Source: Deltaproteobacteria bacterium (GTDB lineage: Bacteria > SAR324 > NAC60-12). Taken from it: a stretch of 51,636 nt of DNA. Location of the stretch: positions 1 through 51,636 of the forward strand of contig JAYOTF010000023.1 of the NCBI GenBank assembly GCA_038150265.1, read 5' to 3'. Made by a program: the position numbers. Position 1 is the stretch's first letter; every line of letters begins with the position of its first letter. Below are positions 14,601 to 20,600 of the stretch, piece after piece.

Positions 14601-17600
14601 CGGGACGCGCTGAAAAGCTGAACCTCCAAATCGGGAGAGCCCATGCGCATCGCAAGCTGGACCGTTGTTGCTTTACTCGTTGGCCTGCTGGTCGGGTGCA
14701 GTTCCACACCCGGCCCGCGGCAGCAGTCTGGAGTGCTGGACACCCCAGAGCATCATGCCACCAAGGGACTGAACCAGCTCGAAGCCAACCGCTGGCGGGA
14801 AGCCGGACGGAGCTTTGACCTCGCCCTGCAGCTTCAGGACGACCATCCGGAGGCTCTTTCGGGAAAAGCGCTGGTGGTGGCTCATGAGGCCACGGAGCCC
14901 GGACGCCCGGCGGAGCGCCAGCAGGCCCTCCGGGAGCAGGCCCGGGAGCTTCAGGAACAGGCCCAGGCGGGGGCTCGTCAGCCGAAAGCGTCGCTGCGGG
15001 TATGGATCAACCGCATCTGGCTGGAGCAGCTGCTTCAGGAGGAAGACTGGTTTCCAGAGGCCGAGCAGGCCTTTGCGCAGACTCAGGAACTCCTGCTGGA
15101 CCACCCCAACCTCCGGAACCTGCAGGCTGAGCCTCACTACCGACTGGCCCTCGCTGCCCAGACCGCCCTCGAGTTTGGGAAGGCCTCCGACCAGTTCCGC
15201 CAGGTCCTCTCCCTCAACCTGGGCTACACCCGGGAAGCCGACCAGGCGCTGGCTCGCCTGAATGACATCGTCCGGGCGCAACCGGGAAGCCGACAGGGCA
15301 AGGCGGTGGCTCTGGCAGAGCAACTGAGCCGGGCAGACCTGGCGGCGCTGCTGGTGGAGGAGTTCCGGCTGGGGGAGCTTTATGAGCGCTCACAGGTTCC
15401 AACCCCTCCAGGCTACAACGGCCCCTCTCAGCAGGAGTCCGGAAGTCAGCTCAACCTCAATGCGCCCGCCTCCGACCTCTCGGGGCACCCGCTGCAAGGT
15501 GACGTGGAAGAGGTGCTGGCGCTGGGCGTCCGGGGCCTCGAGGTCAACCCGCAGAAGCTCTTTCTGCCAGATGACGCTGTGACCCGGGCCGAGTTTGCTC
15601 TGGTTCTGGAAGACATCCTCATCAAGGTGCTGCAGGACCGGGCGCTCGCTGCGCGCTTCGTGGGGTCTCCTTCTCCGTGGGCCGATGTGCGGTCGGATGC
15701 CTACTACTACAATGCCGCCCGGACCGTGGTCGACCGCGGGCTCCTGGCCCCACAAAATGCGCTCCGGGGCGAGTTTGGCCCTGAGGCTTCCGTCACTGGG
15801 GCTGAGGCACTGCTCGGACTGCGCAAGCTCAAGGACGAACTGAATCGCTATGTCCGTTCACGAAGCTGAGGCGTTTCACGTCCTGGTGCTGGACGATGAA
15901 CGCAGCATCCGCTGGGTTCTGGAAAAGGCACTTGAGCAAAAAGGCCTCCGGGTGCATGCCGCCCGCGATGTTCCGGAGGCTCGCGACCTCCTCCAGCGCT
16001 TTCCCATCCAACTGGCGCTGGTGGACATCAACCTTCCTGGTGTCGACGGCATCTCCTTCACCCGTGAAATCACGGCGCGCCCGCAGCCCCTGGCGGTCAT
16101 TGTGATGACGGGGCAGAGCACCATGTTTCATACCATTGAGGCAATGAAGGCCGGGGCGTTCGACTACATCTCCAAGCCGTTCAACCTGGCAGAGGTGGAG
16201 GCGCTCGTGGACCAGGGGCTGGACCTGGTCCGGAATGCGGTTTCGGCCCCGGAGGGAACCGAGCCTGCGGCGCTGCGGCAGGAAGGCGACCTGCTGGTGG
16301 GGAACAGCGCCCAGATGCGAGAGGTGTACAAGGCGATTGGACGCGTGGCGCCCACCGACCTGACCGCCCTCATTCAGGGAGAGAGTGGCACGGGCAAGGA
16401 ACTGGTCGCCCGCTCCATTCACCAGCACTCGACCCGGGCGAGTCAGCCGTTTGTCGCCATCAACTGTGCGGCCATTCCTTCGGAGCTGCTGGAGTCCGAG
16501 CTGTTCGGACACGAAAAAGGAGCCTTCACCGGCGCACAGGATCGCAAGCGTGGGAAGCTGGAGCTGGCCAGCCGCGGGACCCTGTTTCTGGATGAGATCG
16601 GAGACATGCCGATCAAGCTGCAGAGCAAGCTCCTCCGGGTGCTGCAGGAGCGGAGCTTTGAGCGCATCGGCGGGCATGAGCTGATTCACACCGACATGCG
16701 CGTCATTGCGGCAACTCACCGAGACCTTTCTCAGCTGATTGAGACGGAGCAGTTCCGCTCCGACCTCTACTACCGCCTGAACGTCTTCCCCATCCGGGTG
16801 GCCCCGTTGCGAGAGCGGCGCGAGGACATTCCGGCGTTGGTGGAGCACTTTCTGCGCAAAGGCAGCCGCGAGATGGCCGTGAGCCGCAAGACGGTTTCCA
16901 GCGAAACCATGACGGCGCTCAAGGGGTACGTCTGGCCCGGAAACGTCCGGGAGCTGGAAAATGTCACCAAGAGCCTGATGATTACCAGCGTCACCGACGT
17001 CATCACCGCGAGCAGCCTGCCCCGGCACCTGCTGCAGCAACCGGAGGTGCCCAACGCGGAAGACGCTCTGGAGCCCCTTGTGGAGCAGCGCCTCCAGGGC
17101 CTGGTCCGAGACTGCCTGGAGCGAGGGCAGGAGGACCTGATGGATTTTGTCATGCACCAGGTGGAGCGCCCCCTCCTGAAGACGCTGCTGGAGCAAATGA
17201 ACTGGAACCAGCAACGGGCCGCCCGGGTGCTGGGCATCAACCGCAACACCCTCCGGAAGCGCCTGGAGCTGCTGGGCATCAGCCGCGACCGTAACGGAAA
17301 GTCATGAACCAACTGACTGAAGTCTTTGCCACCATCCAGGAACGTCAGGCCCATGGCACCCCGGACTCCTCGTATGTGGCCAAACTGCTCTCTCGGGGAG
17401 TGGACAGCATTCTGAAAAAAGTAGGCGAGGAAGCCACCGAAGTTGTCCTCGCAGCAAAAGGAGGCGATCGGCACGAACAGGTTCACGAAATTGCCGATCT
17501 CCTGTTTCATGTCTTGGTGCTGATGGCTCACCAAGGCCTTTCACCTGATGAGATTGATGCAGAGCTGCTACGACGCCATGGAAAGTCGGGTCTGCAAGAA

Positions 17601-20600
17601 AAAGCCGAGCGTGCTCAGCGTCACTAATCTCTCCCAACCTCAGAACACTCGCCTGGAAATACCAATGGCTGCTTCCGGAACACCCCCTTCCTCTTCCAAA
17701 CTGACGACCCTCTTTCAACCCGTCTCCGTCCTCAACATCCAGATGCCCAACCGCATCATGGCCACGCCGAGCATTGAAAATCAGGCGGATACGGACGGAA
17801 CCGTGACCCCGGCGCTGATCCGGCACTACACCGGACTGGCTCAAGACGGAGTGGGAACCCTGGTTGTGGAGTCCGCGTATGTGGCTCGGCAGGGCCGGGG
17901 TCATGCCACGCAGTTGGGCATTTCGGAAGAGGAGCACCTGGAGGGGCTGGCGAAGCTGGTCACTGCCGTCAAGAAGGAAGGCAGCGCCATTGGCATCCGG
18001 CTTTCGCATGCAGGCGCAAAGACCTCTGAGGAGGTCTGCGGAGAGACCCCGGTGGGGCCGTCGATTCTCAACTTTGGACGGGATTTTGATGTCAGCCGGG
18101 AGTTCGACCAGGACGACTGTGAGGAAATCATTCTGCACTTTGTCCATGCAGCTGAGCGGGCGCAGGAGGTGGGGATGGACTTCATCCAGATCAACGGCGG
18201 CGACCAGCAGTTGCTCGACCAGTGCCTGTCCCTCAAGTTCAACGGCCGCGATGACGAATATGGCCCCGGAGACATTGAGTCTCGGCTTCGGCTCGGACTC
18301 GACATCGTCCGGGCGATCCGGAAGCGGGAATCGGTGAAGATCCCCCTGGGGTACTACTTCACCATCATGGACAAGATTGAAGACGGCTTCACTCCGGAGG
18401 AACTGCAGGCCCTCTTTCAGCAGCTGGAACAAGCCGGCGTGGACCTCTTTCATCCGCTGGCCATTCATGCCATGAACCGCTGCTTTGATGGCGAGCTCTG
18501 CATGCTGCAGTGGGCGGGAAAGTTCACGAAGCGTCCGCTGATTTCTGAAGGAAACATCAAATCCCCACAGATCTTGCAAGAATCAGCAGAGCTGGACCTT
18601 GCCGAGTGGTATGCGCTTGAGCGGGGCATGTTCACGCGGCCACAGTGGTACAGCTTCCTCAAGCGCAAGCTGACCCCACCGAAACACTGAATCTCTGCAC
18701 GATTCTCCTCCTCTCGTATCAAGGATCCTCATGAAGCAGCCTTCTCTGAATGTGGTCATTGCTGGACTGGGCACTGTTGGAAGTGGCGTTGCCACCGTGA
18801 TCACGGACCATGCGGCCAAGGGCGCGCCGGTGCGTGTGGTGGGCGTCTTGGAAAAGAACCCCAACAGCCCCACTGCTGCCCCGTGGCGGGAAAGCCACCC
18901 GGAGTGGTTTCAGCGGAAGCGGGAAGACGTGCTGGCTGATCCGGAGGTGCATGCGATTGTGGAAACCGTGGGAGGGCAGACGTTTGCGAAGGACCTCATT
19001 CTGGAGGCACTGCGAGCAGGAAAGCACGTGGTGACGGCGAACAAGGACCTCATTGCCACCCATGGTCCGGAACTGCTGGAGACCGCCCGGACGCAAGAAC
19101 GCTACCTGCTGTTTGAAGCCGCGGTCGCAGGGGCGATTCCGGTCCTGAGGCTGCTTCAGGACTACGTTCAGGTGAGCGACGTGGAGCGGGTGCAGGGCAT
19201 CTTGAACGGGACCAGCAATTACATTCTCAGCAAGATGGAAACCGACAAGCTCTCCTTTGCGGAGGCGCTTCAGGAAGCACAGGACCTCGGATTTGCCGAA
19301 CAGGATCCGACCAACGATATCGCCGGGTACGATGCCCGCTACAAGTTGGTCATCCTCACCTACCTGGTCACCGGACACTGGCTTTCGCCAGAGCAGATTC
19401 CCCTTGAAGGCATCGACCACCTGGACCTGGCTGATTTTGAATACGCCGAGCGCGTGGGCCGACGGATCAAGCTCATTGCCTCCATGGAGCGTGGCCCCCA
19501 CGGCATCTCCGCGCATGTGCTGCCGATGATGCTTCCTGTGGAAGCCCCCATGGCCAACATCCACGGCTCCACCAATGTGGTGTCGTTGCAGGGGGCGTTT
19601 TCCGATGAAATCACCCTGGTGGGCAAGGGGGCCGGAAGCCTCCCGACGGCTTCTGCGATTGTTGCCGACCTCAACAAGCTCAGCCGCCCCTTTGCCTCCA
19701 ACCTTCCGGAGCCAATGGCGGACTTTTCGCTCCAGCCCTTTGCTGAGCAATCCTTCCGGCACACCCTGCGTTTTGAGGTGTGGGACTCCCCCGGAATCTT
19801 CGGACGCATTGGGCAGGTGCTTGCCGACGAGGGCATCAACATTTATGCTTTAGAGCAGCTTCCCCAGTATCACCGCATTGATCGGGAGGAGCGCCAAGTG
19901 GTGATCTTCACCATGTCGCTCGAAACCTGCCGGGAAGGCATCCTGCAACAGTCGGTGAAGCGCCTCAATGAGGAATCCTTCATGGCAAACCCGGTGGTGA
20001 TCCTGCGCGAACCTGCCTGACTGTTGACCACCTCCGGGACCGCATGAAAGTGGCGCGATGGCCGAGTTCCTGAAAAAATACCGCTTCCCCCTGGTGATTG
20101 GGGTGACCCTGCTGGTTTTGCTCCTGGCCATCCTGCAAAACCGGAATCAGCGCATCGAGTCGCGCTTCCAGTCGCTGGTGATGACCATCGCCTATCCTGC
20201 AGAAGTCGCCTTCCATTTTGTCACGCAATCGATTGGGGGGTGGCTCGACTCCTACATTCTGCTGGTGGGGCTTCAGGAGGAGAACCTGCAGCTTCGGGAG
20301 CAGGTGAAGGACCTGACGGAGGAACTGAACCGGACCCGTGAGGAAGCGATCCAGTTCCGGCGCCTCCGGAACCAGCTCCAGTTTGCTCAGCAGAATCCGG
20401 GAGAGAAGCTGTTTGCTGAAGTCATCAGCGAAACTTCCGACGGCCTCCACCAGATCCGCCTCATCAACCGGGGGACCCGCCAAGGCGTTCAGCGCAACTT
20501 TGCCGTCATTCTTCAAGAAGGTCTGGTCGGACGCATTCAGGCCGTCTCGCCCCTGCAGTCTCAGGTTCAGCTCCTGATTGACCAGCGGAGTCGGGTTCCT

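Follow-up and report, generated by a model that had tools for sequence, protein, structure and literature searches.

A divergent HisG homologue as the probable first enzyme of histidine synthesis in a SAR324 bacterium

How does a bacterium that keeps the later steps of histidine synthesis make phosphoribosyl-ATP (PR-ATP)? The question is raised by the window analysed here, a stretch of 51,636 nt from genome G000 (SAR324; NAC60-12; completeness 97.8%), which carries hisE, a gene whose product acts on the product of the 'missing' enzyme. ATP phosphoribosyltransferase (ATP-PRT) represents a textbook allosteric enzyme and catalyses the committed step of the pathway. The survey's finding was that HisG/HisZ is missing from an otherwise complete pathway, which was taken to imply an unrecognised enzyme that makes PR-ATP. 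The assignment of hisE was borne out by two models, NF001611 (129 bits against a cut-off of 99) and TIGR03188 (99.8 against 42.7), and the later genes reported with it were all located by BLAST or by cut-off score (Table 1). The start of hisE is overlapped by the stop of the response regulator gene that precedes it (ATGA, read from the sequence). The gene for a flavin oxidoreductase lies 3' of hisE, a neighbour with no demonstrated link to histidine.

Table 1. Features of the window (plain positions) and of other contigs of G000 (contig:positions)
Feature	Position	Strand	Basis or remark
NtrC-like sigma-54 response regulator, not a his gene	15850..17307	+	TIGR01818, 523 bits against a cut-off of 558.6, slightly too low
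hisE, phosphoribosyl-ATP diphosphatase, 107 aa	17304..17627	+	NCBIfam equivalogs over cut-off
Old-yellow-enzyme-type flavin oxidoreductase	17665..18690, start codon inferred	+	NamA/OYE models, all under cut-off
Homoserine dehydrogenase, mere neighbour	18731..20020	+	NF004976, 383 bits against a cut-off of 205
hisD	C3:80923-82344		BLAST with Catenovulum his proteins
hisC	C40:13766-14839		BLAST with Catenovulum his proteins
hisB and hisH	C1:148867-150070		BLAST with Catenovulum his proteins
hisA and hisF	C18:25612-27134		BLAST with Catenovulum his proteins
hisI	C22:38815-39246		BLAST with Catenovulum his proteins
hisN	C36:12674-13435		Over its cut-off
P0001, 397-aa 'hypothetical' protein, candidate ATP-PRT	C4:120594-121784	-	Fold and profile homology

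At the level of annotation, the absence of HisG and HisZ stands. PF01634 gave zero matches in G000 at E 0.1 and HisG_C (PF08029) zero at E 1, while HisZ was not found, the one true HisS-family (PF13393) gene scoring as hisS and not as hisZ. Canonical HisG is indeed rare in the SAR324 family, as had been claimed, with PF01634 over cut-off in seven of 45 genomes (control, 14 of 14). The sole PF01634 match in genome G039 (E 3e-4, under cut-off) was rejected, being inside a Lon protease ORF, and other sub-threshold matches (L009, L013, L015) are long unrelated ORFs. What does not stand is the absence of ATP-PRT itself, which is probably hidden in G000 as a strongly remodelled HisG relative missed by standard annotation, since a HisG-fold protein, P0001, is encoded elsewhere in the genome. 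Gene-order reasoning within the family could not reveal this protein because its gene, which sits on a different contig, has no his gene near it. With filters off, a profile of 34 canonical HisG proteins searched against the 46,522 six-frame ORFs of G000 did not pick up P0001 at cut-offs as loose as E 50; BLAST of G000 with the insert-bearing HisG of genomes G019, G020 and G025 missed it as well. Genes related to that of P0001 are referred to here as new-type HisG; G039 carries one. PF13393 was searched in ten other carriers and gave a single match in six, and extra copies or fragments, not typed, in four.

In its AlphaFold2 model (pLDDT 84.8, pTM 0.87), P0001 is predicted to adopt the two-lobed periplasmic-binding-protein-II (PBP-II) catalytic fold, closest to that of ATP-PRT. 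With Foldseek, all 29 matches listed were ATP-PRTs (best E 6e-10), and in a VIA search of 48,161 chains the top eight were ATP-PRTs (Z 11.0-13.9, rmsd 3.1-5.0 over 188-228 residues), which outranked all other PBP-II folds, the next fold having Z 9.5. Identity to solved HisG proteins is only 10-26%, and homology is detectable by family profile only, not with the single protein. The family profile A2 returned ATP-PRTs as 16 of 17 PDB matches at E<=10 (best 2e-4) and aligned with the 34 canonical HisG proteins in hhalign at probability 97.3 (E 2e-11), against a probability of 28 for the close alignment A1; PDB sequence searches with P0001 alone, or with the A1 profile, found no HisG. Pfam and NCBIfam gave nothing relevant for P0001: PF01634 did not match it, nor did any NCBIfam family at E 1e-10, and none of 42 relatives reached the PF01634 cut-off (best 25.1 against 25.5 bits). 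Taken at the level of profiles and model, P0001 is a divergent, insertion-bearing homologue of HisG, without ACT domain or HisZ, and is predicted to be active.

The catalytic core would span approximately residues 9-312 and carry as inserts a helical pair (~36-68), a helix/strand insert (~135-185) and a hairpin, with some 85-95 mainly helical residues apparently replacing the ACT-type HisG_C domain. In the model, residues ~309-397 form a helix-loop-helix without beta-sheet, and they have no PF08029 match, so that P0001 lacks the ACT site known to bind histidine. Residue equivalences are drawn from motifs and from a profile alignment of low quality in the second lobe, rather than from a superposition of coordinates. 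On that footing R20, kept in 80 of 81 family proteins, aligns with the Arg of the canonical N-terminal K-G-R in the comparison of A2 with the PDB. G129, D131, E240, E254, Q257, G259 and T261 are kept in 81 of 81, position 258 being S or T in all, so that, as mapped by motif, the family has both the Glu of the PRPP site and the D/E-x-x-x-[ST]-G-x-T loop. The canonical V-R-x-x-D-I-P is not kept in P0001, where the segment reads G108-E-E-P-H-N113 and the conserved Arg and Asp are lost, whereas the distant member P0156 retains R...D-I-P with one extra residue. The E. coli HisG counterparts, as we count them, are presumably E156, D169 and T173-T176 at the PRPP site and R54 in VR..DIP, and we take the site of Psychrobacter arcticus E163 to be the matching Glu across species. 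One study reports that P. arcticus E163 binds the 3'-OH of PRPP, and that R32 and R56 are the catalytic arginines for leaving-group departure (PMC9734150). R81, R83, R86 and R89 are all conserved in the new type, and one of them may be the counterpart of R56. PRPP probably binds at E240, E254 and the Q-[ST]-G-x-T loop, and R20 and one Arg of the R81-R89 cluster would help pyrophosphate to leave. P0001 is probably a homodimer, as modelled with an ipSAE of 0.77 (best control 0.02), a mark reached by 20 of 30 solved homodimers and one of 23 single chains, although likeness to solved HisG dimers could account for this pass; the runs agree in at least 85% of contacts with pLDDT of at least 78, and R81 and R86 contact the other subunit in this model.

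The distribution of the new type is nearly mutually exclusive with that of canonical HisG, the counts being of related and hence non-independent genomes, most of them MAGs. In the SAR324 family (45 genomes), 34 genomes have the new type, seven canonical HisG, two both and six neither; those six are 51-87% complete, and all 19 high-quality genomes hold one type or the other. In the sister family, 17 of 19 genomes have canonical HisG and none has the new type. Among 55 genomes of the Beggiatoaceae, the family of genome G092, the figures are 34 canonical, 16 new type, none with both and five with neither. Fifty carriers are labelled neither SAR324 nor Deltaproteobacteria; canonical HisG is present in three of these, and hisI in 48. 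Carriers that also hold canonical HisG number five (G025, G041, G076, G106, G108), and the new type occurs twice in one genome (L063, L111). The new type was seen in seven phyla, with no match in phages or plasmids, and its distant subgroups (A4, P0141) gave zero matches in two metagenome scans. It seems that the gene has replaced the usual HisG in several unrelated bacterial groups; it would have spread between lineages by horizontal transfer and taken the place of canonical hisG, within the operon itself in the case of Catenovulum. A tree built with FastTree was rooted at its midpoint.

As to gene context, nine of nine genomes of the Catenovulum clade have the homologue at the head of the hisD-C-B-H-A-F-IE operon, and none of the nine has canonical HisG over cut-off; among 30 relatives, 26 have canonical hisG ahead of hisD. 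A His-rich leader ORF and a terminator-like hairpin lie upstream of the gene in seven of seven loci examined, the Rfam His_leader model being over cut-off in one of six scanned. The new-type gene is followed by hisC at L096, and a distinct HisS adjoins it in seven loci. No his genes lie beside it in the SAR324 family, G000 included (neighbours of 30 loci).

We conclude, with a probability of roughly 0.93, that G000 makes histidine by the normal route, the first step (PRPP + ATP -> N1-(5'-phosphoribosyl)-ATP + PPi) being catalysed most likely by P0001, a strongly remodelled member of the HisG superfamily of ~395 residues whose gene would have spread between lineages. The loss of the VR..DIP pair, the large inserts and the five genomes with both types could be taken to mean that P0001 has the HisG fold but is no enzyme (a sensor, say) or is one of other specificity, such as a different phosphoribosyltransferase, with PR-ATP coming from elsewhere. 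This is very unlikely, given that the gene fills the hisG slot of an attenuated operon throughout the Catenovulum clade, including a complete chromosome without canonical HisG, that it shows no overlap with canonical HisG in the Beggiatoaceae, that its PRPP-loop residues are invariant and that Pfam found no DNA-binding domain in P0001.

The failure of every canonical model in G000 would also suit a non-homologous enzyme or a bypass yielding PR-ATP or PR-AMP; however, 13 of 13 high-quality family genomes without canonical HisG have a HisG-fold gene to close the gap, and hisE, acting on PR-ATP, is intact, which makes such a route extremely improbable. The survey's unrecognised enzyme has a strong candidate in P0001, which by fold, motifs and operon slot is neither an unrelated enzyme nor a bypass but the very divergent HisG that had been entered there as a caveat. 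The chance that canonical hisG is merely unassembled, or that the pathway is decaying in organisms auxotrophic for histidine, appears negligible: most genomes are MAGs and some have neither gene, but 38 of 45 family genomes are without canonical HisG while 43 have hisD-family genes, the six in the family that show neither gene are all less than 90% complete, and the complete chromosome of the carrier Catenovulum sp. SX2 (G085) also lacks canonical HisG.

ATP-PRT is described in two architectures (PMC10795190). Short-form HisG(S), which acts with HisZ (P. arcticus, Acinetobacter baumannii, Thermotoga maritima; PF01634), provided the top Foldseek matches and has in common with P0001 the two-lobed fold, the lack of a C-terminal ACT domain, the N-terminal P-x-x-G-R, G-x-D, the [ST]-G-x-T loop and the dimer, predicted in P0001. 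However, HisG(S) has ~210 residues, whereas P0001 adds large inserts and a C-terminal arm, has EEPHN in place of VR..DIP, falls below every PF01634 cut-off and occurs in a genome without hisZ. Long-form HisG(L) (E. coli, Campylobacter jejuni, M. tuberculosis, Medicago; PF01634 and PF08029), which gave the top VIA matches (Z 13.9, 13.4, 13.3), resembles the new type in being a single polypeptide with a C-terminal extension and in standing first in the his operon of gammaproteobacteria; it differs from P0001 in its C-terminal part. Pfam already ties part of the new-type family to HisG, since PF25936 of Pfam 38 (HisG_halo, 'Halobacterial ATP phosphoribosyltransferase', an automatic Atlas name) labels 49% of the closest Atlas cluster (score 0.99) and, as precomputed labels counted by hand, 43 of 120 homologues among the matches listed. 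That name is halobacterial, whereas the carriers found are bacteria. The nine homologues with a real source name among the matches listed are all called hypothetical proteins. No description of a divergent HisG was found in the literature, as covered by titles and the starts of abstracts of mostly open-access papers, nor in passages of PMC11535334 and PMC9026213.

On balance we favour the view that the new type is a third class of ATP-PRT beside long-form HisG and HisG(S)/HisZ, active without ACT or HisZ, with an ATP-side site rewired through EEPHN in place of VR..DIP, with inserts and a C-terminal arm that form a new histidine sensor or leave it feedback-free, and having displaced canonical hisG repeatedly in seven phyla. 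That the adjoining distinct HisS is a regulatory partner, in an echo of how HisZ arose, is a bolder and rather unlikely extension. Because cultured named species (Catenovulum, Gayadomonas, Thiolinea) carry the gene and an E. coli delta-hisG strain exists, the new type is testable now, and if naturally insensitive to histidine it would also matter to the production of histidine by fermentation. A third architecture that is widespread and has neither of the known regulatory devices would reveal a further means of controlling the pathway's committed step, or of leaving it uncontrolled. It would also close a gap in the pathway through which SAR324, many Beggiatoaceae, Caldilineaceae and Catenovulum otherwise look like histidine auxotrophs in genome-based models.

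The survey had found HisG and HisZ missing from the annotation of the source genome, G000, while the later histidine genes were present, and this was borne out. The hisE gene lies in the window with the gene of an NtrC-like regulator on one side and that of a flavin oxidoreductase on the other, and the remaining his genes are dispersed across the genome, with hisD, hisC, hisB, hisH, hisA, hisF and hisI being identified by BLAST and hisN by TIGR02067. G000 is 97.8% complete; PF01634, the canonical HisG profile, has no match in it and scores over cut-off in 7 of the 45 genomes of its family, with 14 of 14 positive controls recovered. 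Since HisG_C (the ACT-type domain of long-form HisG) was also not found in G000, and its sole HisS-family gene scores as hisS, the gap is real at the level of annotation. The start of hisE is translationally coupled to the regulator gene (ATGA overlap, window 17304-17307), an unusual location for a his gene. Two histidinol-dehydrogenase-family genes, with ≤5 matches in relatives, were also observed in G000; such additional copies may act on other substrates.

A candidate enzyme, P0001, was traced from weak PF01634 matches below threshold (E 0.02-0.05, profile positions 108-157) in ORFs of about 400 aa in four genomes, in which HisG-like motifs were seen and whose G000 homologue is 68-72% identical. 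P0001 comprises 397 aa from an inferred GTG start, and GC content by codon position is normal. Nothing relevant scored on P0001 with Pfam or NCBIfam, and the canonical HisG profile does not pick it up even with filters off, hence the survey's negative results. Homologues number 322 at E≤0.001 and, among the matches listed (120 of 322), those with real source names are called hypothetical and are mostly from SAR324. A further sub-threshold PF01634 match, in genome G039, was rejected as spurious, lying inside a Lon protease; G000 has four full-length Lon paralogues.

Locations of the features discussed (C, contigs of G000; L, loci in relatives; HisS rows, genes beside or near new-type hisG)
Feature	Location	Basis or remark
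hisE	window 17304-17627	over curated cut-offs
P0001 gene	G000:C4:120594-121784 (minus)	outside window
New-type gene neighbours in G000:C4	L018:8913-10637; about L018:11910-12677	
Histidinol-dehydrogenase family	C3:80923-82344; C9:84410-85786	
Lon paralogues	C8:22420; C5:92653; C13:65238; C38:14049	
Rejected PF01634 match	L008:1078-3285	G039
Second divergent HisG	L005:1195-2295	G019
Second divergent HisG	L006:1189-2379	G020
Second divergent HisG	L007:1288-2376	G025
HisS	L052:2891-4228	
HisS	L053:5646-6980	
HisS	L059:10659-11969	
HisS	L069:5702-7012	
HisS	L073:8087-9424	
HisS	L088:507-1979	
HisS	L094:4347-5693	

By fold and profile, P0001 belongs to the HisG superfamily. Its AlphaFold2 model (73-sequence alignment; pLDDT 84.8, pTM 0.87) retrieved ATP phosphoribosyltransferases in 29 of 29 cases among the Foldseek matches listed (best E 6e-10), and an independent structure search of 48,161 chains placed eight such enzymes at the top (Z 11.0-13.9), with many other PBP-II folds at Z≤9.5. 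The close alignment of P0001 relatives alone did not reach HisG by sequence; a 37-sequence alignment taking in distant relatives did so in 16 of 17 PDB matches (best E 2e-4, three collinear motifs), and hhalign against 34 canonical HisG gave a probability of 97.3. PF25936 (HisG_halo) falls on 49% of members of the nearest Atlas cluster, and Pfam 38 has therefore already noticed the link in part.

The catalytic core, inserts included, runs from about residue 9 to residue 312, and the last 85-95 residues are predicted to form a helix-loop-helix rather than an ACT domain. Among 81 proteins (P0001 and 80 from a pattern scan of species genomes), R20 is conserved in 80, and D124, G129, D131, E240, E254, Q257, G259 and T261 in all. 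Judged by motif, R20 would be the N-terminal Arg, G129/D131 the G-x-D motif, and E240, E254, Q257, G259 and T261 the PRPP-binding Glu and loop of canonical HisG. According to PMC9734150, R32 and R56 of P. arcticus HisG are important in catalysis and E163 binds PRPP, residues that may have counterparts in P0001. Invariance at positions 105-113 and 183-191 is partly built in among scan proteins, these being the scan's patterns, and most of these positions are invariant in the close alignment too. P0001 falls outside both the long form and the short, HisZ-associated form, and has EEPHN in place of the canonical VR..DIP. A homodimer model scored 0.77 against 0.02 for the best control (contacts agreeing at least 85%, pLDDT at least 78) and places lobe I of one chain against lobe II residues of its partner. 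Among solved homodimers 20 of 30 attained this mark, as did 1 of 23 single chains; the modelling supports a homodimer, although resemblance to solved HisG dimers could yield the same pass. The C-terminal arm is missing from distant subgroups (P0141-P0211), whose members show 20-29% identity and measure about 320-345 aa or more, and some of these retain R...DIP, which suggests that they are intermediates; metagenome scans turned up neither hosts nor gene context for them.

P0001-like (new-type) genes occur in 34 of the family's 45 genomes and canonical HisG in 7; two genomes combine them and six lack both. The last are all <90% complete, and all 19 high-quality genomes hold one form or the other. 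The new type was found in 0 of 43 from other families of the phylum; in the sister family, 17 of 19 genomes carry canonical HisG. The scan gave 91 relatives, 80 being kept, whose labels include SAR324, Pseudomonadota (Catenovulum, Gayadomonas, Thiolinea, Cocleimonas, Beggiatoaceae, Thiodictyon), Chloroflexota, Campylobacterota, Bacillota, Fibrobacterota and Myxococcota. Fifty of the 80 loci were tested, a set without L108, the second copy L111 and any locus with a SAR324, Deltaproteobacteria or unclassified label; canonical HisG was present in 3 and hisI in 48 of these carrier genomes. The 55 Beggiatoaceae genomes comprise 34 with the canonical form, 16 with the new type and 5 with neither, without co-occurrence. 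All these counts include kin, which are not independent, and are therefore patterns, not statistics. In a midpoint-rooted FastTree, Pseudomonadota copies split into separate clades, Beggiatoaceae adjoining Caldilineales (SH 99), which suggests repeated transfer. One Caldilineaceae genome has two copies on different contigs (L063, L111). Three genomes of G000's family encode another divergent HisG, separate from the new type: a long form of about 345-350 aa that has inserts, bears PAGSLA.PKRGG in its N-terminal part and scores 62-70 bits with PF01634. Of the three, G025 also carries the new type.

The strongest functional evidence comes from the Catenovulum clade, where the new type occupies the slot of hisG, under histidine attenuation, and has displaced it there. 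At seven loci from Catenovulum, Gayadomonas and Alteromonadaceae, hisD, hisC, hisB, hisH, hisA, hisF and hisIE come directly after it (typed over cut-off at L077), an order repeated in two further genomes of the clade. Canonical HisG is absent from all nine and present in 30 of 32 other relatives, with hisD after it in 26 of the 30. Upstream of the new-type gene lie a short His-rich ORF (3-5 His) and then a hairpin with a T-run (7/7 loci examined), Rfam His_leader scoring over cut-off in one of six loci scanned. P0001 and the Catenovulum protein share 48% identity across 393 residues, so that the functional assignment carries over to P0001.

P0001 is predicted, with a probability of about 0.93, to be a dimeric HisG variant that catalyses PRPP + ATP -> PR-ATP on its own. 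That it has the HisG fold and no enzymatic activity fits the data poorly and is improbable; a non-homologous supply of PR-ATP, equally ill-fitting, is more improbable still, and recourse to assembly gaps or auxotrophy to explain the missing HisG is the least credible. The survey's expectation of an unrecognised PR-ATP-making enzyme has gained a candidate, but one that is a HisG homologue and entails no new chemistry. No description of a P0001-like HisG was found among titles and abstract openings in a literature search that mostly left subscription journals outside, nor in passages of PMC11535334 and PMC9026213.

The new-type gene has no his neighbours in G000's family. At 18-19 of 30 family loci its neighbours are a protein with CsgG/FGE-sulfatase domains, on the downstream side, and an unknown protein whose gene is transcribed divergently; at 11, what is presumably a protein resembling GTP cyclohydrolase I follows instead. 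HisS is not adjacent to the P0001 gene in G000. The HisS found beside or near new-type hisG at seven loci form a distinct clade from Pseudomonadota and Campylobacterota (37-91% alike mutually, 22-31% to other HisS) with motif 2 intact; the two that were typed score as hisS, and in some of these genomes the adjoining gene is the sole HisS match. Co-transfer or partnership is possible. A second full HisS-family gene is also present in G081, and fragments of one in G064, G079 and G089.

PMC10795190 describes the ACT domain and HisZ as two regulatory devices of ATP phosphoribosyltransferase, and both are missing for P0001. Its inserts and C-terminal arm, in which W318, W330, R351, R358, W360 and D364 are conserved, could form a new allosteric site. 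New-type HisG defines a widespread, testable third architecture.
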